Positions 8,040-19,707 are shown, counted from the stretch's first letter. The stretch: 20,000 nt of DNA from an uncultured virus (IMG/VR IMGVR_UViG_3300027851_000025) (IMGVR_UViG_3300027851_000025); one strand, 5' to 3'. Numbers and translations are program-made. Notes: a model not told the origin generated them from the letters alone.

Positions 8040-8411
8040 ATGATTTCAGTAACAAAGAAGTTTTCATTCAGTTATGCCCATCACCTCCCCGAATATGACG
8101 GAGACTGTCAAAGGGTCCATGGTCATAACAGCAATGTGGAAGTGGAGTTTTCGAACCAGGCCCCCATAATGCCGGCGGCATACCCGGGAATGGTGGTTGA
8201 TTTCAAAATCATTAAAAAGATTATTGACCCGATCATCGATGAATTGGATCATCACGATCTCAATCAGGTAATTGTCGGCAATCCAACTGCTGAAAACATT
8301 GCTCAATGGATTGCCGACAAGATTGGGAAAACCAGTATTGGGGCTGGTTTGGTCAGGGTCCAGGTATCTGAAACCGACGATTCTTTTGCTACCTGGAGGA
8401 AGGGAAAATGA
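8040..8411 (+). CDS. queD: 6-carboxy-5,6,7,8-tetrahydropterin synthase
   Basis: AHHL...C.RVHGHN, DF, LDHHDLN, PTAENIA and VSET motifs; AAGGAG RBS. Confidence 0.95.
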   Translation: MISVTKKFSFSYAHHLPEYDGDCQRVHGHNSNVEVEFSNQAPIMPAAYPGMVVDFKIIKKIIDPIIDELDHHDLNQVIVGNPTAENIAQWIADKIGKTSIGAGLVRVQVSETDDSFATWRKGK

Positions 8412-9088
8412 GAGTAAATGAAATCTTTTGTTCTTTGGATGGGGAAGTAAATCAATGGGGGCAGGGCAAACCAACTGTATTCATCCGGCTCCAGGGCTGC
8501 AATCTCAGGTGTCCTTACTGCGATACCAAACAGACATGGGATTTGGAAGGGGGAGGTGAATTATCAGTTTATGAAATTATGGAAAAAGTAAACTCCTCTG
8601 GATTTGGCAAGGTCACTATAACTGGAGGGGAGCCCCTTTTTAGTCCTGAATTTGTAATGTTGGCAAAGGCTCTGGTCGGAATGGGGATTCAAATATCAGT
8701 GGAGACGAATGGAACCATCCCGATTCCGGCTGGAGCATGGGCAGATAAAATCTGTTGGGTGGTTGACTATAAATTGGAGCTGAAACAATCCCTTGGAGAG
8801 TTCGTATCCATCTTGGGGAGAAAACCAAGCATGTGGGTAAAAATCATTATTGGAGGATATGATGATTTTTACAAGGGGATGGAAATGGTAGAGGATATCA
8901 CCTTCCTTTTGCCTGATTGTAATTTTGCTTTCAGCCCCATGTTTGGGAAAACCAGTGAGGAACAGATTTTTACCTGGATGATCGAGAATAGATATAAACA
9001 CCCGACTATATTGAATAAAGTGGTGGTGAATACCCAGCTCCATAAAATTATTTTTCCAAAAGGCGAAAAAAACTTTGTTTTGCCTTAA
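8408..9088 (+). CDS. queE: 7-carboxy-7-deazaguanine synthase (radical SAM)
   Basis: EIF.SLDGE, FIRLQGCNLRCPYCDT (CxxxCxxC), TGGEP, ETNGT and QLHK; ATGA-coupled to queD. Confidence 0.95.
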   Translation: MRVNEIFCSLDGEVNQWGQGKPTVFIRLQGCNLRCPYCDTKQTWDLEGGGELSVYEIMEKVNSSGFGKVTITGGEPLFSPEFVMLAKALVGMGIQISVETNGTIPIPAGAWADKICWVVDYKLELKQSLGEFVSILGRKPSMWVKIIIGGYDDFYKGMEMVEDITFLLPDCNFAFSPMFGKTSEEQIFTWMIENRYKHPTILNKVVVNTQLHKIIFPKGEKNFVLP

Positions 9089-9186: not shown

Positions 9187-9942
9187 ATGGCCAAGAAGAA
9201 AGCAGCAAAAGCCCCAGAAGTCCCCCTGGAAGCCCTTCAGGCAGTAGCAATGGACTTCAATTCCTTCATGAAGTTTGCCGAGGGAGATGAGATCCCGGTA
9301 GATATGGCATACGACGATCTGCTCGGCGAGCTCACCGAATGTGCTGCCCAGTTGGAAGAGTCCGATACCATCCAGCCCGGCACCGCCGAAACCCTGACCG
9401 CCTTGGGGTTAGAGTTTGCCGCCACTGTCGCTGAGGGCGAAGCCCAGGCCGATGATGATGCCGATGATGATGCCGATGATGATGCCGATGATGATGCCGA
9501 TGATGATGCCGATGATGATGCCGATGATGATGCCGAGCCCGACAATTCGGAGCTGGTTGCCAAGGTGAACAAGGCTCGCAAGATCGACGATCTTCTGGTT
9601 ATTGCCAAGGAAGAGCGGATTGCAGTTCCCCCTCCCTTCCGGAAGGACATCAAGAAGCTGAAGGAATATCTGGTCAAGAAACTGGAAGAAGGCCCCAAGG
9701 AGAAACCGGCCAAGAAGGAGAAACCGGCCAAGAAGGAGAAGGCGCCGCGCGGCCCGTCGGTCACGAATATGATCTCCATGGAAATCTGCAAGAACGAGAA
9801 GGCATCAACAGAAGACATCGCCAAGGTCTTGAAAGAGAACGGAATGGTATTCAGCGACTCTACCATCAACACCACGAAGGCCGGCGTTCTGAAGGTTCTG
9901 AATTGCCTGAAAGAACTCGGTCGACTCAAGCCCATCAAGTAA
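9187..9942 (+). CDS. Hypothetical bipolar-charge protein (acidic N-half with (ADDD)7, Lys-rich C-half)
   Basis: AAGGAG RBS, its own promoter upstream and a terminator downstream; C/G-ending codon bias; 251 aa. Confidence 0.85.
   Translation: MAKKKAAKAPEVPLEALQAVAMDFNSFMKFAEGDEIPVDMAYDDLLGELTECAAQLEESDTIQPGTAETLTALGLEFAATVAEGEAQADDDADDDADDDADDDADDDADDDADDDAEPDNSELVAKVNKARKIDDLLVIAKEERIAVPPPFRKDIKKLKEYLVKKLEEGPKEKPAKKEKPAKKEKAPRGPSVTNMISMEICKNEKASTEDIAKVLKENGMVFSDSTINTTKAGVLKVLNCLKELGRLKPIK
9448..9531 (+). repeat. Perfect 12-bp tandem repeat GCCGATGATGAT x7
   Basis: Read directly; encodes (ADDD)7 in frame. Confidence 0.95.
9697..9740 (+). repeat. 18-bp tandem repeat AAGGAGAAACCGGCCAAG x2 plus a partial copy
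   Basis: Read directly; encodes KEKPAK KEKPAK KEK. Confidence 0.9.
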
Positions 9943-9966
9943 TTCCCGACAAACTATATATTGAAA

Positions 9967-9994
9967 GGGGATGGAGGTTTCCATCCCTTTTTTT
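9967..9994 (+). terminator. Rho-independent terminator
   Basis: Stem GGGATGGA (9968-9975), loop GGTT, TCCATCCC (9980-9987), then T7 (9988-9994). Confidence 0.85.
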
Positions 9995-10005
9995 GGAGGA
10001 TCTGT

Positions 10006-10668
10006 ATGAAAGCTATTCTCGCTTTGTCAGGAGGAATGGACTCCGCTACGGTTCTTGCCTGGCTTCGGAAAAATGGCTATGAAGTGGAATGTTTTTCTTT
10101 CTCCTATGGTTCCAAGCATAATCATTGGGAAGGAAATGCTGCCCAGAAAGTAGCAGCATTTTATGGAATGGAACTGCAGGAATCGATTGATCTGTCAAAC
10201 ATCACAAAACAATTCAAATCCAATCTCCTGAAAGGCCAGGGCGAAATCCCGGAAGGCCATTATCAGGATGAGACCATGTCGCAGACGGTGGTACCCGGAA
10301 GAAACATCATTTTTCTTTCTATCTGCGCCGGCCTTGCCTGGTCAAAAGGCGCATCCAAGATTGCCATAGGGATTCATCAGGGAGATCATACCATTTACCC
10401 CGACTGCAGGGTAGAGTTCTACGAAGAGATGTCTAAGGCGATCTCCACCGGTACAGATGGAAATGTGGATGAGATCATCGCCCCCTTCCTCCACACCGAC
10501 AAAGCAGGCATACTCGCTTGGGGCCTGAAAAACGGGGTTCCATATCACCTGACCCGGACTTGCTATAAAGACCAGCCATTGTCGTGCGGGAAATGTGGAT
10601 CTTGCGTCGAGCGCCTGGAAGCCTTTGCTTCGGTCGGGATTAAAGATCCGATTGAATATGCAAAGTAG
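10006..10668 (+). CDS. queC: 7-cyano-7-deazaguanine (preQ0) synthase
   Basis: SGGMDS, VPGRNIIF, YPDCR and TCY...CGKCGSC..R; GGAGGA at 9995-10000 places the start at ATG 10006. Confidence 0.96.
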   Translation: MKAILALSGGMDSATVLAWLRKNGYEVECFSFSYGSKHNHWEGNAAQKVAAFYGMELQESIDLSNITKQFKSNLLKGQGEIPEGHYQDETMSQTVVPGRNIIFLSICAGLAWSKGASKIAIGIHQGDHTIYPDCRVEFYEEMSKAISTGTDGNVDEIIAPFLHTDKAGILAWGLKNGVPYHLTRTCYKDQPLSCGKCGSCVERLEAFASVGIKDPIEYAK

Positions 10669-10960: not shown

Positions 10961-11182
10961 ATGCAAAGTAGAAGGGAGTCGCTGGCAGAAGCCTCCTTGA
11001 ATATCCTCACTGGATTTCTGGTATCCTGGCTGATCACCCCTCCCATCCTGCAGATGTTTGGATACTCAATATCCATGAACAAGGCGTTTGGCGTCACTGT
11101 AATCTATACGGTGTTTTCATTTCTGCGTTCTTACATTTGGCGTAGGATTTTCAACAGGAGAGTAAAATGGCAAAAAAGATAG
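10961..11182 (+). CDS. Small two-helix membrane protein of a common phage type
   Basis: MQS..ESL.E...N...G...S...RSY.WRR.FN pattern; two hydrophobic segments. Confidence 0.75.
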   Translation: MQSRRESLAEASLNILTGFLVSWLITPPILQMFGYSISMNKAFGVTVIYTVFSFLRSYIWRRIFNRRVKWQKR

Positions 11183-12045
11183 TCCTTTCAAACGAACAGA
11201 TTCAGGAGCGGTGTGCCGACATAGCCAATGACCTGCCAGCTCACAAAAACTTCTATGGGGTGCCAAGGGGAGGAATCGCTCCTGCTTATTTACTGGCCGG
11301 CATGTCCGATGGCTTTGTGGTTTCGAATCCGGAAGAAGCAGATTTCTTTGTCGATGATCTTATCGACTCCGGAAGAACCCGGGCAGAATATCGCGAGAGA
11401 TTCCCCTTCACCCCATTCATCTTTTTGTATGAAAAGATCGATTCCTCCCAGTGGTTCGTATTTCCTTGGGAAGTTGACAATTCCGGCAATGATACTTCTG
11501 GCGAAGACATCTTTATCCGACTCCTGGAGTTCATCGGTGAAGATCCGAGCAGGGAAGGGCTTTTGGCTACTCCCAAGAGGATGATGCGGGCCTGGACTCA
11601 TTGGACTCAGGGATACGGCAAATCTCCGAAAGATGTCTTCACTTCATTCGAAGATGGTGCGGAAGACTATGACCAGATGCTTCTGGTCGATCCTATTCCA
11701 TTCTTCTCCCATTGCGAGCACCATCTGGCCATATTCTTTGGGGAGATCCACATCGCCTATATCCCGCACAAGAAGATTGCCGGCCTGTCAAAGTTCATCC
11801 GGCTGGCAAGGATCTTCTCTCAGCGCCTGCAAGTCCAGGAAAGACTGACGGTTCAGATTGCCAACGCCATCTTCAACAGCGGCCTGGAAACCCCGGGAGT
11901 CGGGGTATTCATCAAGGCCCGGCACATGTGTATGGAATCCAGGGGGGTTTCCACTTTTGGGACCTACACCAAAACCTCGGCTCTCCGGGGGGTATTTATG
12001 AAGCCGGAGGTTCGGGAAGAGTTTTTCAACATGATCAAGTTGTAA
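11167..12045 (+). CDS. folE: Phosphoribosyltransferase-like domain fused to GTP cyclohydrolase I
   Basis: N-terminal YGVPRGG, FVDDLIDSGRT (PRPP loop) and WFVFPWE; C-terminal REGL..TP.R, SHCEHH, GLSK, RLQVQERLT and HMCMESRG. Confidence 0.92.
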   Translation: MAKKIVLSNEQIQERCADIANDLPAHKNFYGVPRGGIAPAYLLAGMSDGFVVSNPEEADFFVDDLIDSGRTRAEYRERFPFTPFIFLYEKIDSSQWFVFPWEVDNSGNDTSGEDIFIRLLEFIGEDPSREGLLATPKRMMRAWTHWTQGYGKSPKDVFTSFEDGAEDYDQMLLVDPIPFFSHCEHHLAIFFGEIHIAYIPHKKIAGLSKFIRLARIFSQRLQVQERLTVQIANAIFNSGLETPGVGVFIKARHMCMESRGVSTFGTYTKTSALRGVFMKPEVREEFFNMIKL

Positions 12046-12078: not shown

Positions 12079-12609
12079 ATGAAAAAGTATCTGTGGCCGG
12101 CACTGTACCTGTCCAGCATTCTTCTTGGAAACTTCTTTGTCATGTGGTTTGGGATCGTCAAGTTTGCCGGCCTGACCTTCCCTGCCGGCGTTATCTTTGT
12201 CGGTCTGACCTTCTCCTTCCGAGATTTTGTTCAACGCCAATGGGGAGACTACGCCTGCTGGATCTGGATGGGCCTGGCCACAGTCATTACCTTCTTCCTC
12301 AACCGGCAAATTGCCATCGCCTCGGTCACTGCCTTTTTTGTTTCAGAGCTGGTCGACTGGGCTTGTTTCAAATACTTGAAGTTTTCATTCAGGAAGAGGA
12401 TATACATCTCAAACCTGTTCTCCTGCCCATTGGATTCTATAATCTTCGTTACCCTGGCATTTGGATGGTTTTGGCCGGCGATCTGGGGTCAGGCTCTGAT
12501 CAAGTATCTTTCCGGGTTATTGGTCCTACCTTTCCTTGGTTTGAAGGATCGCATTCCTGCCGACAATAACTATACCGACATCTTCCCTTCTTACGGAGTT
12601 GGAAAGTGA
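12079..12609 (+). CDS. yhhQ: VUT/YhhQ-family (DUF165) 7-deazaguanine precursor transporter
   Basis: Multi-TM; TF..RD.V...WG, IA.AS..AF..SE.VD, SN..S...DS..F..LAF and GQ...K; located in the que cluster. Confidence 0.8.
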   Translation: MKKYLWPALYLSSILLGNFFVMWFGIVKFAGLTFPAGVIFVGLTFSFRDFVQRQWGDYACWIWMGLATVITFFLNRQIAIASVTAFFVSELVDWACFKYLKFSFRKRIYISNLFSCPLDSIIFVTLAFGWFWPAIWGQALIKYLSGLLVLPFLGLKDRIPADNNYTDIFPSYGVGK

Positions 12610-12816
12610 AAGTTTATCTTGCCGGGGTTCCAGGGGGGTTCTCCAGGAGATTGTAAGAGGGAGAGGGAACTCTCCATTAAGTTCAAAAGAAGACTACATT
12701 CTTACTATCACATCAAAATAACAAAAAGTAATCTGATCAATCCAAATGAAAATATATCTAGCATCGGGATATTCTGTAATGAATACCAAAGGCAGAGAGA
12801 GAGAGATGCTAAGTAG
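12606..12816 (+). pseudogene. MKIYLA-family module 1, frameshifted at G6
   Basis: GTG 12606 overlaps the yhhQ stop. MKVYLAGVPGG stops at 12654-12656, but the +1 frame continues SPGDCKRERELSIKFKRRLHSYYH. G6 lies at 12633-12638. Confidence 0.7.
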
Positions 12817-12934
12817 ATTTGGGGGCGCGTATAAAAGATTAGTATCCTATTATGATTTGTCAAGAGGCAATAAAATACTTAATATAATAAATCTGAATAC
12901 GAATGAAAATATATCTTGCCGGAAATACCCCTGA
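12746..12934 (+). CDS. MKIYLA-family module 2, in frame
   Basis: MKIYLASGYSVMNTKGREREMLSRFGGAYKRLVSYY...; (AG)6 at 12794-12805. Confidence 0.75.
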   Translation: MKIYLASGYSVMNTKGREREMLSRFGGAYKRLVSYYDLSRGNKILNIINLNTNENISCRKYP

Positions 12935-13085
12935 CAGAGAGAGAGAGGAGAAAATTCTTTTACAGAAAAACCTGACCAGAAAAAGACTTTTGGCTTTCCA
13001 TTACCTTCTCTGTGATAAGAATGTAAAATTAATGTTTGATCTATGGACAAATGAAAATAAACTTTGCAGGAACTCCAGGAACTAG
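12903..13085 (+). CDS. MKIYLA-family module 3, in frame
   Basis: MKIYLAGNTPDREREEKILLQKNLTRKRLLAFHY...; (AG)6 at 12936-12947. Confidence 0.75.
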   Translation: MKIYLAGNTPDREREEKILLQKNLTRKRLLAFHYLLCDKNVKLMFDLWTNENKLCRNSRN

Positions 13086-13186
13086 AGGGAGAGAGAGATT
13101 GGCAAAAGATTTTCAATAAGCGCCTGCTCTCCTTCTGGAACTATACAAATAATGAATTTAACATCCCATTTGCTTTTGAGGAATCA
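13051..13186 (+). pseudogene. MKIYLA-family module 4 (N-terminal module of the DpdA-like gene), frameshifted at (GA)5
   Basis: ATG 13051 MKINFAGTPGTRGRER stops at 13117-13119. The +1 frame reads DWQKIFNKRLLSFWNY and runs uninterrupted into the transglycosylase. (GA)5 lies at 13089-13098. Confidence 0.75.
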
Positions 13187-14080
13187 ATGAAAAACAAAAT
13201 TGACATCTTTCTCGACTCCGGGGCCTTTTCCGCATTCACTCAGAATGTTCAAATCGACATCGAAGAATACATTGCCTTCATCAAGGAACACCAGTCGAAT
13301 CTGGAAGTATATGCCAATCTAGATGTTATAGGTTCGCCGAAAGGGACCTGGATGAATCAGAAGATCATGGAGCGTGCCGGCCTGAATCCCCTCCCCTGTT
13401 TCCACTACGGGGAGGATCTGAAGTGGCTCCACAGATATCTGAATACCGGGTATGAGTATATTGCCCTTGGAGGCATGGTTCCGATCTCGACCCGTGATCT
13501 CATTAAGTGGTTGGATACCCTCTTTGCAGAGCACTTGACCGACTCCAATGGTTTCCCGATAATCAAGGTCCATGGCTTCGGCTTGACCAGCTTGACTCTC
13601 ATGCTTCGCTACCCTTGGTTCAGTGTCGACAGTACTTCCTGGGTTATGACCGGTAGAATGGGCTCTATCTACGTTCCCAAGCGAACCAAGGGGCAATGGT
13701 CATATCATGAGGAAGCGGTGAAAATAGCCGTATCTACGCGCTCTCCGAGCAAGAAGGATGCCAACCAGCATATCTCCACCCTATCCCCGAAAAGAAGGCA
13801 GGTCATCCTCGATTACTTGGACGAAAAAGGATATGCCCTTGGGTCCTCCAGGTTTCGGAAAGAGTCCGAGAAATACGAGCTCAAAGAGAATGAACGATGG
13901 GATGGCAAGGCTGTAAATGGAAAGAGGGGCGTGGAGGAAGTCATCGAACCGGGAATCAGCAATGACTACAAACTCAGGGACGAGATGAACATTATCTATT
14001 TCCTCGATCTGGAAAAGTCCTTTCCGCCGTATCCCCGGCAATTTCAGGTCAAGAAGAGAGTGGGGTTGAAAGGACTATGA
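13187..14080 (+). CDS. dpdA: TGT-fold DpdA-like DNA guanine transglycosylase (catalytic core)
   Basis: FLDSGAFS, ANLDVIG, PCFHYG, YIALGGMV, KVHGFG and SVDSTSW match the TGT-barrel motif order; lies in the queCDE/folE cluster; GAGGA 13178-13182 precedes ATG 13187. The subfamily is not verified. Confidence 0.8.
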   Translation: MKNKIDIFLDSGAFSAFTQNVQIDIEEYIAFIKEHQSNLEVYANLDVIGSPKGTWMNQKIMERAGLNPLPCFHYGEDLKWLHRYLNTGYEYIALGGMVPISTRDLIKWLDTLFAEHLTDSNGFPIIKVHGFGLTSLTLMLRYPWFSVDSTSWVMTGRMGSIYVPKRTKGQWSYHEEAVKIAVSTRSPSKKDANQHISTLSPKRRQVILDYLDEKGYALGSSRFRKESEKYELKENERWDGKAVNGKRGVEEVIEPGISNDYKLRDEMNIIYFLDLEKSFPPYPRQFQVKKRVGLKGL

Positions 14081-14262
14081 AAGTATTTCTTGCGACTTGG
14101 GTTTTGGAGCCTTCCCAGGGTCAGACCTTGACAAAGATGGAGGCTGGCAATAGGCTTTTGAGTTACTTCCATACCAAGCAGAAAGAAGAGGTCTTTTCCG
14201 TATATTGTAGACGAGGTGTAAATGAAGATATATCTGGCAGGAAACGGGGCAATGCCAAGTGA
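14077..14262 (+). CDS. MKIYLA-family module 5, in frame, no slippery tract
   Basis: ATGA overlap with the dpdA stop; MKVFLATWVLEPSQGQTLTKMEAGNRLLSYFH... Confidence 0.72.
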   Translation: MKVFLATWVLEPSQGQTLTKMEAGNRLLSYFHTKQKEEVFSVYCRRGVNEDISGRKRGNAK

Positions 14263-14417
14263 AGAGAGAGAGAGTATATTCAGAAAAAGAATGCTTCTTT
14301 ATTCATCAGCGCCTCTTCTCTTTCTTTGAAATTCAGCCTGGAAGATTTGCCCACTCTCAATGGAATTGGATAATCCAAAACAAGGGGAAAATTCATGAAG
14401 AGGATCGAGGATGTTAA
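14222..14417 (+). pseudogene. MKIYLA-family module 6, frameshifted at (AG)6
   Basis: ATG 14222 MKIYLAGNGAMPSEERE stops at 14327-14329. The +1 frame gives RVYSEKECFFIHQRLFSFFEIQPGRF...GC* (TAA 14415-14417). (AG)6 lies at 14263-14274. Confidence 0.72.
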
Positions 14418-14985
14418 AACTGGGATGGTAAGAAGAAAAAACGTTACTTCCTATTTCGAAAGGGAACTTACCAAAAGAGGGAAAGGATATATCAAAGCTA
14501 TTGGACCATCATTTATCGAAGAAGAATTAACCCCAAAACAAATACATGATCTCAATCTTCCGACAAATAGAACCTTGAGAAATAATTCAAACAGTCTTGG
14601 TTTGACCTGGCAGTTTAAGAATGAAATAACCAGAATCAGCAGACTCGTTGAAATAAGAGAATATGGGGATAATTATTTGAAATCACCATCTATTTATAAT
14701 GGTGATATTGATAAAGCGTATGATTTCTTTAGTCCACATATTTTCCTGGTAGTGGAATATGATAATGAAAATAACCCATGTAAATTTAGTAACTTAGTAG
14801 AAGTAGGAAGTATCCCAAAGAAAATGTTTTACTTTTCCGAATCAAAAGGGAATCGAAATCGAATAAATATAAAAGGATTCTCCAGATATTTTACTATGTA
14901 TAAAATGAGCAAACACCGGAGTGGTATTTTGAATCGGCCAGATGTAATCGATCAACTGGATATTATCCTTTCCGGTAAAGAATGA
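14395..14985 (+). CDS. Hypothetical protein, 196 aa, AT-rich
   Basis: Long open frame; its stop overlaps the module 7 start; no motif recognised. Confidence 0.7.
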   Translation: MKRIEDVKTGMVRRKNVTSYFERELTKRGKGYIKAIGPSFIEEELTPKQIHDLNLPTNRTLRNNSNSLGLTWQFKNEITRISRLVEIREYGDNYLKSPSIYNGDIDKAYDFFSPHIFLVVEYDNENNPCKFSNLVEVGSIPKKMFYFSESKGNRNRINIKGFSRYFTMYKMSKHRSGILNRPDVIDQLDIILSGKE

Positions 14986-15155
14986 AAATCTATCTAGCCA
15001 GCACCGCTCCAGGAACGGAAGGAACTGAAAAAAACCAGTTGATCTCCATCCCAATTCCAAAGCGCCTGCTCTCTTATCACCATATCAAATTCAATCAGTT
15101 CGGAACCCGGGTCGTCTTTAATGCCTTAACCACAAGGAGGAACAAAACCAAATGA
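14982..15155 (+). CDS. MKIYLA-family module 7, in frame, 57 aa (below ORF-track cutoff)
   Basis: MKIYLASTAPGTEGTEKNQLISIPIPKRLLSYHHIKFNQFGTRVVFNALTTRRNKTK*; ATGA overlaps at both ends; A7 at 15028-15034. Confidence 0.78.
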   Translation: MKIYLASTAPGTEGTEKNQLISIPIPKRLLSYHHIKFNQFGTRVVFNALTTRRNKTK

Positions 15156-16159
15156 AAATCAATCTGTCGCAATTCAAGGAAGTTCTTGGCAAGGTCAAGC
15201 CAGGCTTGTCAAGCGGTAAGGAGACTACAGAGCAGTCCGACTGCTTCGTATTCCACAAGAACCGGATCTTCACCTACAACGACGAGATTTCAGTCAGCTG
15301 CCCCTGGGAATCCCCGATTGAAGGTGCCGTCCCGAGTAAGGAGCTTCTGGCCCTGGTCAATAAGTTGTCGGCTGAAGAAGTAGAAATGAACATGGAGAAT
15401 GGGGAGCTCAGGATCAAGTCAGGCCGATCCAAGTCAGGGCTGGTAGTTCAAGCAGACATCCACATGCCCATCGACGAGATCGTGATGCCAAAGAAGTTTA
15501 GTCCACTTCCCAAGAACTTCACTGCCGGCCTGAAGTCATGCGTCTTCTCTGCTTCCAACGATTTCAGTTTTCCGATCCTCACGGTCGTCCATTGCCTGGA
15601 TTCTTGGATGGAGTCTACGGATAACGATCGGGCAACCAGATGGGAGTTGAGCAAACAGTGGTTCAAGAAGCCGGTCCTGATCCCGGTCGTCGCCGCCAAG
15701 GCTTTGTCTGGGTATTCAGATGTAAAAGCCTATCACGACGATGGGAGTTGGGTCCACTTCCAGATTGGGGATTCCTTGGTATTCAGCTGCCGGACCATTG
15801 ATGGGGATTTCCCTGACATTGGAGGATACTTCAAGACCGATGGGTATGAGCTGGAGTTCCCTAGCTCCACCCTGGATATCCTTAGCAGGGCCGGTATATT
15901 CGTGGAAGCCGACAACTCTGAGAAGCTGGTCCACGTCTCGGTGAATGAGAAGGGGGTTATGGAGATCAAGGCTCAGTCGGATCATGGTTGGTATAATGAA
16001 ACCATTCGATTGAAAGCAGCGCCAAAAACAGCCCTGGCATTCTCCATTCATCCCGACTATCTGTCACAGATACTCAGCTCCACCGGGAAAGCCACTATTG
16101 GTGAAAAGCTGGTATTGTTTGAGACAGAGAACTTCAAACATGTAATTGCCTTGGAATAG
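15152..16159 (+). CDS. dnaN: DNA polymerase III beta sliding clamp-like protein
   Basis: AS.D...PILT.V, STDNDR (cf. ATDGHRL), RTIDGDFPD (cf. RLIDG.FPD) and F...YL; 335 aa; AAGGAGG RBS. Confidence 0.8.
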   Translation: MKINLSQFKEVLGKVKPGLSSGKETTEQSDCFVFHKNRIFTYNDEISVSCPWESPIEGAVPSKELLALVNKLSAEEVEMNMENGELRIKSGRSKSGLVVQADIHMPIDEIVMPKKFSPLPKNFTAGLKSCVFSASNDFSFPILTVVHCLDSWMESTDNDRATRWELSKQWFKKPVLIPVVAAKALSGYSDVKAYHDDGSWVHFQIGDSLVFSCRTIDGDFPDIGGYFKTDGYELEFPSSTLDILSRAGIFVEADNSEKLVHVSVNEKGVMEIKAQSDHGWYNETIRLKAAPKTALAFSIHPDYLSQILSSTGKATIGEKLVLFETENFKHVIALE

Positions 16160-16487: not shown

Positions 16488-17017
16488 GATCGATCGTGAG
16501 TTTATTCCGGATTGAACAATTAGCAGGGGAGGCAGAAAAAGTCCTCCCCTGCGATATCGAAAAGATTCAGATCCTCAATACTAAAGAGGAAGTGGACAAA
16601 TATCTTCTTGAGGTATTGAGGTTAAAGCCAAAGATCATTGCCTTTGATTATCATGGGGTATCCGCCGGCGGGAAAATCAATATAGTTTGCTGTTCCATGT
16701 GCTGGCAGTTGATCAGATCCGTTTCCTGGCAATGGGTTAATACCGACCCCAAACTATTTAGAAAGTTCCTTGAAAGTAATGATATTGGGAAAACAAGTCA
16801 GTATCATAAGCAAGAAATAGAATGGTCGGAAAATAGGTTTAGAAGGACTACAATAAACAACTTAATTGAATATGATTATCCAGGTATAATAAAGAGGGAG
16901 AGAAGGGTTAATGGAAATATGCCAATAGAAAGAATACTGAAAAGTATGGCATTAAACAGTCTATCCAAATACAAAGTAATAGCCGATCAAATAATAGAAC
17001 TGGGGATTATAAAATGA
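16373..17017 (+). CDS. Degenerate DnaQ/PolA-type 3'-5' exonuclease-like protein (start uncertain)
   Basis: KIIAFDY (ExoI-like), FLES.DIGK...HKQE..W (ExoII-like) and P.E.ILKSMALNS (ExoIII-like); ATGA-coupled to dnaE. Confidence 0.5.
   Translation: MGKRNGEVAENEWIEDAGYSQGIDSRVSCRPSQRSLLLRSIVSLFRIEQLAGEAEKVLPCDIEKIQILNTKEEVDKYLLEVLRLKPKIIAFDYHGVSAGGKINIVCCSMCWQLIRSVSWQWVNTDPKLFRKFLESNDIGKTSQYHKQEIEWSENRFRRTTINNLIEYDYPGIIKRERRVNGNMPIERILKSMALNSLSKYKVIADQIIELGIIK
16862..16890 (+). promoter_or_regulatory. Variant copy of the conserved promoter, upstream of dnaE, inside a CDS
   Basis: TTAATT 16862-16867, 17 nt ending CCAGG, TATAAT 16885-16890. Confidence 0.55.
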
Positions 17018-19707
17018 GTTTTTGCCACCTTCATGTCCATAATGAATACTCAGTTCTTGATGGGGTCGGAACCTCAAAACAATATGCCACAATCGCAAAA
17101 GAACTCGGCCAGACCCATCTTGCCTTAACCAATCATGGGAATGTCGATGGCGCAATAGAACATCAAAAACAATGCCTTGAAATAGGGATAGAACCGATCA
17201 TTGGGGCAGAGATGTATCTGGTTCCGGATCTTTCCATTAAAGAAAAGGGAGAAACTCGCTATCACATGACCCTGCTGGTGGAGAATCAAACAGGCTGGCG
17301 GAACCTCCTACAGCTCTTGACGATCGCCAATATAGATGGGTTTTATCACAGGCCCAGGATCGACCATAAGACCTTGATGAAACATCTGGAGGGCCTGGTT
17401 GTTATGAGTGCCTGCTCCGCTTCCTTTATCCATCACAAACCTCATACTAAATTCCTCCGGGATTATATTGATAGGATCGGAAATAACAGAGTATTCTTGG
17501 AAGTAATGCCGCACAAGATCCCGGAGCAGATTGAAACGAATAAGTTGGCCATTTCTCTTTCAAAGAAACTCGGAATCCAAGTAGTGGCCACTAATGACTG
17601 TCATTATCCAACCTCCAAAGCCACAAAACATCAAGAAGTCCTCCTTGCCATCCAAACCAAAAAGAAGTGGTCAGACTCCAGCAGATGGAAGTTTAATTGT
17701 GATGGCCTTTTCCTCCGGTCAGAACAGGAAATGATTGAAGCATTCCAGGAACAAGATTGTCTATCTGATGGCGAAATAAAGAAGGCGATCAGGAGGACAA
17801 TGACCGTTGCCAACATCTGCCAATCATTCCGAATAGAAAAACAAGAAGTATATCTTCCAAGCATTAAGAACTTCCCGACAGAAGAAGATGAATTGATCTT
17901 TCTGGAAAACTTGGTTTATAGAGGGCTCAAGCGGCGCATCGGGGATCTGCCATACGACGATCTAAAAGAATACAAAGAAAGAATCGAAATGGAGATGAAG
18001 CTGATTATCTCCAAGAAGTTTGTTCGATATTTTCTGATTGTTTGGGATCTTATCAAATGGTGTAAGAAGAACAATATTATGACCGGCCCAGGGAGAGGTA
18101 GCGTCGGTGGATCATTAGTTGCCTATCTTCTATTTATTACCGACTGTGATCCGCTTATATACGGCACGGAGTTCTTTCGATTTGTATCTGAGGACCGGAA
18201 TGACCTCCCGGACATCGATATGGACTTTGAGGATATCAAAAGGCAGGAGGTCAGGAAGTACCTGTCTGATAAATACGGGGAGTTCAATGTTTCTGGCCTT
18301 TCAAACTTCTTGACGATGAAGGGGAAAGGGGTTCTCAGGGACGTTTCCAGAGTATTCGACATCCCCCTCAAAGAAGTCGATGTAGCGGCGAAAGCCATGG
18401 TTGATGGGGAAGATGGGGAGGAGATTTCAAAGTCTTTCAAAGAGGTTGGAGAATGCCGGCGCTTTGGTCACAAGTATCCAGAAGTGGTCGAGATATGTAA
18501 ATCAATAGAGGGTCAGATTAGGGGGTATGGCCAACATGCTGCAGGGGTTTGTATTTCCGAAAAGGACTTGAGAGAAGGATATAATTGCAATCTTGTTACC
18601 CGGTCCAATACCATCGTGGCAAACTGGGATATGCGGAATGCGGAGTATTGCGGTTTGATGAAACTCGATATTCTTGGATTGAGTGCCTTAACCATCCTCA
18701 ATGAATGCCGACGATTGGTAAAGCAAAATCACGATATTGATATAGACTACAAAGCAATTTCATTTGATGACAAAAAGGTATTCCAGGAAATCTCCAATGG
18801 TCATACTGTTGGGGCATTTCAGATAGGATCTTCTGGCCTGACCAATTATTGTAAAGAGCTTGGGGTTGATAACTTTGCTATGCTCTATGCAGTGACTGCC
18901 CTCTGGAGGCCAGGACCATTGCAGTCCGGGATGACCGAACTCTATGCCAAGAGAAAGAGGGGACAAGTTAAGATCCAAAAGATCCATCCAATATTCGATA
19001 AAATTACTGAAGAGACTTTTGGTGTAATTGTTTATCAGGAACAGGTAATGAAGGTGGTTAATCAACTGGCAGGAATCCCAATGTCCACCTGTAACAAGAT
19101 CAGAAAGGTCATGGGAAAGAGTATGGGTCATATTGCCTTTGACAAATACAAAGAAGAATTTCTCCAGGGATGTAAAAATAACGAAATAAACTGGAAGAAG
19201 GCAAACCAAATCTGGGACATGATGTCGAAGTTTGGTGGATACGGATTCAATCTTTCACACTCTGTTGAATACTCGATGATTACCTATTGGGATATGTGGA
19301 GCAAGACATATTATCCCAATGAGTTCTTGGCTGCTTCTCTGACCCTTGGGGATAAGACCAAAAATATTATATATATGCAGGAAGCAAAAAGACTGGGTCT
19401 CAAGATCAATCTTCCGAAAATAGGCAGATCCGAGGCGGTTAGATGGAATTGTGATGACAAAGGTAATTTATATGCCCCTTTCATTTCCATAAACGGCGTT
19501 GGAGATGCTACGGCAGAGAAGATTGCTGAGGCAAAAGTAGAGAATAAAAAGAGAAGGGGATTTTTCAATCATTTGAAACAAAGCGAGAGGATTCCTGGAG
19601 TTGATAAAAATGTAATTGATATCCTCACCAAAATAAAGGCTTTTGATCCTAACCATGAAACCACAACCCAAGACCTGAGAGAGTTTAGATCATATTTTAT
19701 TTTTTAA
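17014..19707 (+). CDS. dnaE: DNA polymerase III alpha subunit (family C), C-terminally short
   Basis: PHP motifs HLHVH..YS.LDG and TNDCHY; GPGRGS..GSLVAY, PDIDMD, H.AG, KLDILGL, YQEQ and YGFN.SH; 897 aa. Confidence 0.97.
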   Translation: MSFCHLHVHNEYSVLDGVGTSKQYATIAKELGQTHLALTNHGNVDGAIEHQKQCLEIGIEPIIGAEMYLVPDLSIKEKGETRYHMTLLVENQTGWRNLLQLLTIANIDGFYHRPRIDHKTLMKHLEGLVVMSACSASFIHHKPHTKFLRDYIDRIGNNRVFLEVMPHKIPEQIETNKLAISLSKKLGIQVVATNDCHYPTSKATKHQEVLLAIQTKKKWSDSSRWKFNCDGLFLRSEQEMIEAFQEQDCLSDGEIKKAIRRTMTVANICQSFRIEKQEVYLPSIKNFPTEEDELIFLENLVYRGLKRRIGDLPYDDLKEYKERIEMEMKLIISKKFVRYFLIVWDLIKWCKKNNIMTGPGRGSVGGSLVAYLLFITDCDPLIYGTEFFRFVSEDRNDLPDIDMDFEDIKRQEVRKYLSDKYGEFNVSGLSNFLTMKGKGVLRDVSRVFDIPLKEVDVAAKAMVDGEDGEEISKSFKEVGECRRFGHKYPEVVEICKSIEGQIRGYGQHAAGVCISEKDLREGYNCNLVTRSNTIVANWDMRNAEYCGLMKLDILGLSALTILNECRRLVKQNHDIDIDYKAISFDDKKVFQEISNGHTVGAFQIGSSGLTNYCKELGVDNFAMLYAVTALWRPGPLQSGMTELYAKRKRGQVKIQKIHPIFDKITEETFGVIVYQEQVMKVVNQLAGIPMSTCNKIRKVMGKSMGHIAFDKYKEEFLQGCKNNEINWKKANQIWDMMSKFGGYGFNLSHSVEYSMITYWDMWSKTYYPNEFLAASLTLGDKTKNIIYMQEAKRLGLKINLPKIGRSEAVRWNCDDKGNLYAPFISINGVGDATAEKIAEAKVENKKRRGFFNHLKQSERIPGVDKNVIDILTKIKAFDPNHETTTQDLREFRSYFIF

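Follow-up and report, generated by a model that had tools for sequence, protein, structure and literature searches.

A candidate modular, partly split phage DpdA with an array of repeat-bearing N-terminal modules

Seven N-terminal modules around a DpdA-like core

The DNA considered here is a 20,000-nucleotide (nt) stretch from an uncultured virus (IMG/VR IMGVR_UViG_3300027851_000025), the whole of which we call the window. It carries a gene for a DpdA-like enzyme, that is, a candidate for the insertion of 7-deazaguanine into DNA, and around this gene lies an array of seven short, paralogous units (Table 1), each a version of the N-terminal module of the enzyme itself. Module and core together may constitute a modular, partly split DpdA, the parts of which are switched by repeat slippage and exchanged by recombination, and it is this reading that we set out and weigh below.

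All seven unit starts, the first of them a GTG, lie on the + strand. Each unit opens with MK[IV][YFN][LF]A and continues downstream to a second motif, R/K-L-x-[SA]-[YF]-[YFWH]. The spacing from start to next gene start is 140, 157, 148, 136 (to ATG 13187), 145, 173 and 170 nt for units 1 to 7, and stop and start codons overlap as GTGA between the Vut gene and unit 1 and as ATGA between the core and unit 5, ORF196 and unit 7, and unit 7 and the clamp gene. A strict regular expression for the N-motif finds eight matches on the + strand of the window, these being the seven units and MKINLS of the clamp gene, and none on the - strand, an excess that argues against the seven units being due to chance. 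The sequence-only reading that preceded this analysis had described seven co-oriented, overlap-coupled units with both motifs, and all of the starts and overlaps are indeed present on the + strand; its further claim that each unit is one peptide holds for units 2, 3, 5 and 7 and fails for units 1, 4 and 6, in which the two motifs lie in different frames.

Intact open reading frames (ORFs) accordingly span units 2, 3, 5 and 7 only, encoding 62, 60, 61 and 57 amino acids (aa). In units 1, 4 and 6, frame 0 ends after 16, 22 and 35 codons, the second motif is in the +1 frame, and the break falls within G6, (GA)5 and (AG)6, respectively. In a listing of ORFs of at least 25 aa, the start at 12606 is absent and that at 13051 appears only within a 27-aa TTG ORF. 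Synonymous codon choice in the conserved unit motifs of the window varies, Leu being written, for instance, as CTA, CTT and CTG, and Arg as AGA and CGC.

Table 1. Features of the window. L-numbers denote related loci in which orthologs of a unit were found; ON and OFF refer to the reading frame of a unit.
Feature	Position	Strand	Description	Orthologs
QueD	8040-8411	+	Pfam; preQ0 pathway
QueE	8408-9088	+	Pfam; preQ0 pathway
QueC	9961-10668	+	Pfam; preQ0 pathway
FolE	11167-12045	+	Pfam; preQ0 pathway
Vut/YhhQ-like transporter	12079-12609	+	Pfam
Unit 1	12606..12816	+	Type B, OFF; GTG start; frame 0 VKVYLAGVPGGFSRRL stops at 12654-12656
Unit 1 remainder	12619-12816		ORF in +1 frame, GGSPGDCKRERELSIKFKRRLHSYYHI...; break in G6 12633-12638
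Unit 2	12746..12934	+	Type D, ON; intact 62-aa ORF; (AG)6A tract 12794-12806 encodes REREM	L005:5890, L008:5092, L094:1260
Unit 3	12903..13085	+	Type C, ON; intact 60-aa ORF; (AG)6 tract 12936-12947	L005:3820, L026:4110
Unit 4	13051..13119	+	Type A N-part, OFF; MKINFAGTPGTRGRER...; frame 0 stop 13117-13119; break in (GA)5 tract 13089-13098	In frame, with (AG)6: L005, L017, L022, L024, L027
DpdA-like ORF	13064-14080	+	Codons 13064-13186 = β2-α2 of module A (KRLLSFWNYTNNEFNIPFAFEES)
Core proper	ATG 13187 to 14080	+	297 aa, FLDSGAFS ... FSVDSTSW; GAGGA precedes ATG
Unit 5	14077..14262	+	Type E, ON; intact 61-aa ORF; ATGA overlaps core stop
Unit 6	14222..14417	+	Type H-like, OFF; frame 0 stop 14327-14329; break in (AG)6 tract 14263-14274
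Unit 6 remainder	14259-14417		ORF in +1 frame, ...VYSEKECFFIHQRLFSFFEI...
ORF196	14395-14985	+	AT-rich 196-aa ORF between units 6 and 7; not a module
Unit 7	14982..15155	+	Type F, ON; intact 57-aa ORF; ATGA overlaps with ORF196 stop and clamp start	L004:4601, L009:4450, L026:5663
Sliding clamp	15152-16159		Pfam/PHROG
Pol III alpha	17014-19707		Pfam/PHROG

The DpdA-like ORF matches the phage "queuine tRNA-ribosyltransferase" families phrog_887 (E 5.3e-59) and phrog_7068 (E 3.6e-23), and by tblastn the DpdA genes of 237 phage records match it at 41-49% identity; the bacterial DpdA equivalog NF041059 reaches 26.7 bits, its cut-off being 200. On the best reading of these matches, the ORF would insert 7-deazaguanine into DNA, the role of DpdA. 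Because the phrog_887 match begins at profile position 43, the ORF lacks about 42 N-terminal positions. The ORF includes the β2-α2 half of unit 4, the +1 frame of which is the frame of the core, so that the earlier observation that the second half of this copy runs on into the DSGAFS core is borne out. Two Asp-bearing strands, xFLDSGAFS and SVDSTSW, mark the core; their residues D10 and D148 are invariant in 49 sequences, and by comparison with tRNA-guanine transglycosylase (TGT) we take them to be catalytic.

Among relatives, module and core occur both joined and apart. The 120 best homologs of one fused relative comprise 63 proteins fused in frame to a module (type B in 35), 48 core-only proteins of about 300 aa that begin just before xLFLDSGA, and nine with frameshift-like starts, giving readings such as VIVRERE. 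A stop lies at most 26 codons upstream of the core in five loci (L010, L011, L023, L024 and L028), with intact free modules close by. A Met is kept 6-18 aa before DSGA in 62 of the 63 fused proteins, the overall Met frequency being 3.1%, and an in-frame ATG occupies this internal place in 39 of the 44 loci with an attached module. Such a conserved internal start would yield a core-only protein whatever the state of the module upstream.

A separate peculiarity was seen in the dpdA gene of the relative L004, which carries a 965-nt in-frame insertion (L004:3039-4003, between window positions 13619 and 13625) that extends the ORF to 666 aa. Its first residue, following PWY, is Cys, and its last residues, ...VTGN, precede SVDSTSW, so that it resembles an intein set in the conserved Asp-bearing strand; it has no Pfam match at E<=1.

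The place of the module in the barrel

Known single-chain phage DpdAs (BRET, PSTCR4 and Sulfitobacter M39) open with a hydrophobic strand; a helix and xILESWHY come next, and then IFLDSGAFS. The homology of the peptides to this N-terminus, proposed from the sequence, is upheld by hhalign, in which a profile of 43 intact mini-ORFs aligns with full-length DpdA with a probability of 96.5 and an E value of 7.7e-10, residues 1-36 of the mini-ORFs corresponding to residues 1-39 of DpdA.

The window's own A-core form is frameshifted; the fold was modeled with AlphaFold2 (AF2) on the fused relative L008, using a type B alignment of 36 sequences. The resulting model (predicted template modeling score 0.81) has a strand at residues 2-6, a helix at 18-23, a strand at 30-33 and a helix at 34-39, and then the LFLD strand at 54-57 and five further barrel strands. 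Residues 1-334 superpose on residues 40-365 of Zymomonas mobilis TGT with a Z score of 16.5 and a root-mean-square deviation of 3.5 over 249 aligned positions, window-type DpdA thus being without the first ~39 residues of TGT. Searched with Foldseek, the first model matched nothing at E<=0.001; its best TGT rows had probabilities of 0.92-0.98. The model and the TGT alignment together identify the module as the first (β-α)2 quarter of a TGT-type barrel, in keeping with the earlier proposal that it supplies the first barrel strands, and on this model the core from ATG 13187 holds barrel strands 3 to 8 plus the C-terminal part.

Complex prediction was carried out in three runs with the window's core (13187-14080, alignment of 49) and the window's unit 5 (alignment of 52). 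The pair scores 0.89 and the best control 0.01, the value also obtained when the core was replaced; contact agreement between the runs is at least 92%, with a partner predicted local distance difference test score (pLDDT) of at least 73. The benchmark for this score, reached by 116 of 157 solved complexes and by 2 of 215 mismatched pairs, is a rough guide here, as custom alignments were used. Residues 2-4 of unit 5 are predicted to contact core residues 146-148 (FSVDS, strand 8), and residues 26-30 to contact core residues 7-11 (IFLDS, strand 3). This is the place expected for barrel strands 1 and 2, and both of the neighboring core strands carry an invariant Asp. Since loop residues 8-12 of unit 5 lie outside the predicted interface, they would be free on the catalytic face. 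Completion of the core by a peptide, which the sequence-only reading had envisaged, is thus predicted for unit 5, the free module closing the barrel in trans between β8 and β3.

Family, frame states and exchange of modules

Core searches returned 26 related loci from IMG/VR and 80 from metagenomes, which were merged into 82 non-redundant groups totaling 410 kb. On the + strand these hold 160 matches to the first motif, 145 of them with the second motif as well, and on the - strand three and none; the window's seven is the largest number of units in any locus. Free-standing, in-frame units account for 102 of the 145. A profile search over 1.84 billion representatives gave 692 cluster representatives at E<=1e-3, 36 of them at E<=1e-10. 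Among the best 150 of the 692, 133 have at most 80 aa, 14 have 81-120 aa (some with two modules), one has 207 aa, and two are DpdAs of ~350 aa with tandem modules. The units belong, then, to a large family of free-standing proteins of about 55 aa. These mini-proteins have no family in Pfam, PHROG or NCBIfam. A word-index homolog search with unit 5 found two proteins only, the ESM Atlas had no usable match for unit 7, two exact DNA patterns found nothing new in IMG/VR, and a degenerate pattern had no match in metagenome contigs.

The modules fall into types, written as A (GTPGTE.REREW), B (GVPGGGS.GDCKRERE), C (GNTPDREREEK), D (GGMTV.NVKGRERE), E (ATWL...G..LTK), F (ASTAPGNE), G (AAPEPNELKL) and H (GN.G...REK), which recur across phages whose DpdAs are only 50-60% identical. 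Loop identity is 0.38 within and 0.14 between types. The 133 small proteins among the best matches divide into 55 of type E, 28 F, 25 A, 8 H, 3 D, 2 C and 1 G, with 11 unclassified.

Selection on the modules is purifying. By the Nei-Gojobori method, the median ratio of nonsynonymous to synonymous substitution rates (dN/dS) within a type is 0.36 for E (for which the regular expression also took in some type F units), 0.14 for A, 0.39 for G, 0.28 for D, 0.21 for C and 0.35 for H, and the ratio is below 1 in all 67 usable pairs. Neutral decay of the copies, with dN/dS near 1 and random stops, had been named as an outcome that would tell against the array; the medians of 0.14-0.39 and the non-random placing of the frameshifts point the other way.

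Two or three N-modules also stand in tandem, in one frame, in the profile-search proteins P0204, P0229, P0125, P0126, P0131, P0145 and P0191; in P0229 they precede a DpdA core, and in P0204 three of them occur, as judged from its first 125 residues. As a barrel takes one module at most, the others in such proteins are without a place in that barrel.

The frame breaks follow simple repeats. Thirteen frameshifted units were analyzed in detail, ten at offset +1 and three at +2, and in every one the break lies at such a repeat and the downstream frame is open. Type A modules are in frame with (AG)6, at +1 with (AG)5 and at +2 with (AG)7, and frames are also broken at G6, G9 and A runs; over the 145 units, 110 are in frame, 25 at +1 and 10 at +2. 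The + strand of 25 loci (205 kb) has 22 (AG)>=5 tracts, of which 16 lie just after strict unit starts, a region amounting to 2.5% of the sequence, and of the six elsewhere several belong to units whose starts diverge; the - strand of these loci has none. Pure AG codes for RER in 14 of 17 unit cases, where codon usage predicts 3%, and for ERE in 10 of 12. This excess argues that the repeat is kept at the level of DNA. Two other causes of the breaks were considered and set aside, namely sequencing error (the states are identical in three studies, and relatives differ by whole repeat units) and a single programmed +1 frameshift (both offsets occur, and the offset tracks repeat length).

Near-identical phages show toggling. 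Four indels separate L016 from L073 over 4.2 kb of 98.7% identity. One is a single AG within a type F unit, which L073 has in frame; another, of two bases, falls in a type H unit; a third, a 37-nt deletion, takes away β2 of that H unit; and the fourth is one AT of the (AT)7/8 tract of a type G unit (L016:2131 / L073:2903). The (AT)7/8 tract encodes DIYIYIS after β2, and a change of one repeat alters the frame of the module's C-terminal helix. Between L094 and L096 (99.3% identity) the difference is a single AG, located in a type D unit that reads in frame in L094, and five of the seven indels among all near-identical pairs fall within modules. Closer to the window, strains were compared as contigs only, states being judged where contigs cover the units. 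Contigs of the window's own strain come from three studies, one of which may be the source, and have identical repeat states at units 1, 4 and 6. A ~91%-identical relative, X4, has 4 nt fewer at 14263, which puts unit 6 in frame, and, judging from a clipped contig end, probably 2 nt fewer at unit 4, which would leave that unit out of frame at the other offset. The four substitutions of X4 at 13126-13165 are all synonymous in the frame of the core, and the two upstream of the tract are synonymous in the frame of ATG 13051, which suggests that both halves of unit 4 have been translated in their history.

The (AG)n tracts of units 2, 3, 4 and 6 (Table 1) are also runs of GA. According to the accessible part of PMC10484667, phage DpdAs are limited to particular motifs, that of iggy modifying GA only and that of CAjan GA and GGC; if the window's enzyme also targets GA, its own switch tracts would be densely modified.

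The exchange of cassettes that had been suggested finds comparative support in L004, which was aligned with the window by blastn. The two are 90-97% identical on both sides of the array and differ in their content of N-modules. L004 shares the start of unit 1, and then has 127 nt from a module of a different type, continuous in frame with the core; at this place the window has 561 nt, made up of the rest of unit 1 and units 2-4. The shared start of unit 6 is joined in L004 directly to unit 7, window positions 14239-14980 being absent. These joints place the breakpoints in conserved start sequence and at the start of the core, that is, at module edges. ORF196 is missing from L004 and likewise from X4, where 14372 is joined to 14981. 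It has no family in Pfam, PHROG or NCBIfam, and the Atlas points only to PD-(D/E)XK or restriction-endonuclease-like folds, all of these matches being sub-threshold; ORF196 may be a mobile nuclease that drives exchange within the array.

The surroundings are those of a phage replication and DNA-modification block, which also encodes an SNF2 helicase, a primase, a helicase loader and a DnaB-like helicase (Pfam, PHROG). The genes for QueD, QueE, QueC and FolE, of the preQ0 pathway, are linked to the TGT-like phrog_887 gene, and the module array is AT-rich, with a GC fraction of 0.34-0.37, against about 0.5 for the flanking genes. Between QueE and QueC lies a 251-aa ORF (9187-9942) with no Pfam, PHROG or NCBIfam family. 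FolE has 292 aa, its GTP cyclohydrolase I domain is confined to residues 117-290, and its N-terminal extension of ~115 aa contains VDDLIDSGRT, presumably a motif of the phosphoribosyltransferase type for binding of phosphoribosyl pyrophosphate. In the clamp gene, at window position 15703, the window has TTT where a 99.96%-identical metagenome contig, L031, has TT; this single-T difference is probably an assembly error or a rare variant.

A proposed modular, partly split DpdA and its alternatives

Building on the homology, the fold, the size of the family, purifying selection, toggling between near-identical phages and the recombination breakpoints, we consider it fairly probable that the window encodes a modular, partly split phage DpdA with interchangeable N-terminal modules under repeat-slippage switching. 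The first quarter of the barrel, β1-α1-β2-α2 (about 45-60 aa), would be a separable part, present here in seven versions (in order B, D, C, A, E, H and F) and either joined to the core in one chain or produced on its own as a mini-protein. In the latter form it would slot between β8 and β3 and close the barrel in trans, which would leave the type-specific β1-α1 loop on the catalytic face, beside the two Asp-bearing strands. Each module would carry a slippage-prone tract, mostly (AG)n encoding RERE and in other cases a G run, in which a change of one unit would turn the module on or off; in the window, units 2, 3, 5 and 7 would be on and units 1, 4 and 6 off. With the array reshuffled by recombination at conserved module edges, repeat switching and recombination together would vary the set of active modules.

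What such variation might achieve is a further step. The β1-α1 loop of TGT and the residues at the end of β2 line pockets for the neighbors of the target base. Different modules might confer specificity for different DNA motifs or substrates, and switching might be a form of bet-hedging against host restriction and modification-sensing defenses. That the array is in effect a bank of repeat-switchable quarter-barrels, each with a loop over the active site that steers 7-deazaguanine insertion to another motif or another base, we advance tentatively, as possible and somewhat doubtful. Of the sequence-only reading as a whole, N-terminal homology, the fold of the first strands, predicted closure in trans, core-only genes and cassette exchange are sustained, and its claims about retuning go beyond the present results.

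Several results weigh against a modular, split and switched enzyme. The placement of the module in the AF2 models is of modest confidence, with pLDDT of 47-73 (type B alignment) or 53-62 (mixed alignment). The complex model covers unit 5 alone among the seven units, and a split barrel may pass such a test through its likeness to solved single-chain TGT structures. A Shine-Dalgarno-like sequence precedes the internal ATG in only 17 of 39 loci. Free modules also adjoin in-frame fused DpdA genes, in L004, L008, L017 and L022, and so are not simply a missing piece. With 35 of 145 units out of frame and β2 of one unit lost to the 37-nt deletion, some decay is indicated; the identical repeat states in three samples of one strain give no sign of rapid switching within a population; and 84 of the 151 pairs were unusable for dN/dS, mostly through saturated dS.

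The free mini-proteins might instead be regulators or competitors (dominant-negative, or acting on timing or dosage) or folding helpers, which bind the core or displace the fused module and are not productive subunits. The predicted interface speaks for binding and is silent on activity, free modules do occur alongside complete fused genes, and on/off repeats would suit a regulator too. On the other hand, the core-only genes, at five loci and in 48 of the 120 best homologs, are two barrel strands short and would depend on a productive partner; a simple inhibitor would not call for seven or more versions that are conserved and specific to their type; and identical module types are found fused in frame to active-looking cores. 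We therefore regard this role as unlikely.

Could the array be debris, left by recombination or duplication at the 5' end of dpdA, with functionless fragments in which the repeats are mere mutational hot spots? Its AT-richness, the out-of-frame units (three of seven here and 35 of 145 overall), the 37-nt deletion and the fast turnover of content between close relatives would fit such an origin. Debris of this kind would hardly be expected to have dN/dS of 0.14-0.39, to form 692 cluster representatives in conserved subtypes, or to keep its motifs with varied synonymous codons and its start codons and stop-start overlaps conserved. In 13 of 13 examined frameshifted units, moreover, the sole lesion is at a simple repeat with the downstream frame open, and the substitutions of X4 are synonymous in the frame proper to each half, and we find this explanation improbable.

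Programmed recoding, by ribosomal frameshifting on AGA/AGG-rich tracts or by transcriptional slippage, would have all modules made and give the frame a quantitative effect only. Tracts rich in purines and containing rare Arg codons are known to favor slippage; the frame is broken in eight of 16 strict-motif fused units; and in the ~91%-identical relative, which is out of frame as well, the two halves of unit 4 have only synonymous changes, each in its own frame. Against this, the occurrence of both offsets (25 at +1 and 10 at +2), tracking repeat length, fits slippage at the DNA level and not one programmed shift, and near-identical phages differ in their DNA by one repeat unit; nor was a conserved stimulatory structure noticed, though no search was aimed at one. 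Recoding seems, if anything, slightly less probable than debris. Finally, that the mini-proteins act apart from the core, as self-assembling quarter-barrels or as protein substrates of 7-deazaguanine conjugation in the manner of Cap9/Cap10 of the type IV cyclic-oligonucleotide-based antiphage signaling system (CBASS), is very improbable, since the modules share their ancestry with barrel strands of the enzyme itself, the predicted interface is specific (0.01 with the core replaced) and the mini-genes are tightly linked to dpdA in 82 loci, even though the two or three tandem modules of P0204, P0229 and P0125 mean that not every module fits one barrel and a TGT-family enzyme that binds a modified protein N-terminus does exist, according to the accessible part of PMC11996544.

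A modular, partly split DpdA may be compared with several known systems. Single-chain phage DpdAs of the DpdA1 type (Escherichia phages BRET/9g/CAjan, Pseudomonas phage iggy and Providencia phage PSTCR4) have a core of the same family (41-49% identity, phrog_887), a similar neighborhood with FolE, QueD and the clamp, and a similar N-terminal pattern of hydrophobic β1, a helix with E-K/R, xILESWHY and IFLDSGAFS. They are, however, one polypeptide with one N-terminus, whereas in the window the N-module is multiplied, often separate, and supplied with slippery repeats; no mini-gene paralogs are annotated, or were found by motif scan, in three single-chain DpdA phage regions. Z. mobilis TGT has the (β/α)8 fold and the DSGxF strand in common with window-type DpdA, and bacterial DpdA (7ui4_A) is a weak sequence match (E 0.064); no split or multi-module TGT or bacterial DpdA was found in the literature searched.

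In phasevarions, with mod or hsd genes switched by simple sequence repeats (SSRs), and in hsdS shufflons, coding-sequence repeats switch components of DNA modification and alternative specificity parts serve one catalytic machine. As in SSR phase variation, repeat length here sets the coding frame and differs between close relatives with the rest of the ORF intact. Those systems are bacterial methyltransferases, whereas the present one is a viral base-exchanging transglycosylase in which the part exchanged belongs to the catalytic barrel itself; the resemblance would be one of logic and not of membership, a change of specificity being conjectural here. As in a split enzyme, separate ORFs encode the pieces (48 of 120 homologs core-only; 102 of 145 units free and in frame). 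Fragment complementation of TIM barrels, in half- and quarter-barrel models, likewise has a (β-α)2 unit as a separable, barrel-completing piece; to our knowledge those cases are laboratory constructs or evolutionary inference, whereas here natural genes for many free quarter-barrels stand beside a six-strand core. In the literature searched, with supplements and most subscription journals outside its coverage, we found no description of a split DpdA, of N-terminal mini-genes or of repeat switching, nor any of phase variation of phage DNA hypermodification; where "split" occurs in the accessible part of PMC10516641, it refers to a tree method only. We place the locus among DpdA systems, as one whose probable architecture (modular, split and switched by repeats) that literature does not describe.

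In annotation, gene calls leave the products of about 40% of these dpdA genes short at the N-terminus, and the mini-genes fall outside the families of Pfam, PHROG and NCBIfam. Protection of DNA by a phage DpdA is confined to the short motifs that the enzyme recognizes. A core able to take different front pieces would offer the phage an easy means of broadening or varying that protection, and repeat switches would make the modification pattern heritable yet changeable. If the array is such a bank of switchable quarter-barrels, one phage population would hold many modification patterns at once, hedged against restriction enzymes and modification-sensing defenses, and this would be the first natural TIM barrel completed in trans by interchangeable (β-α)2 pieces. 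Hundreds of natural genes for free quarter-barrels, beside a six-strand core, would make the modular origin of the TIM barrel directly testable.

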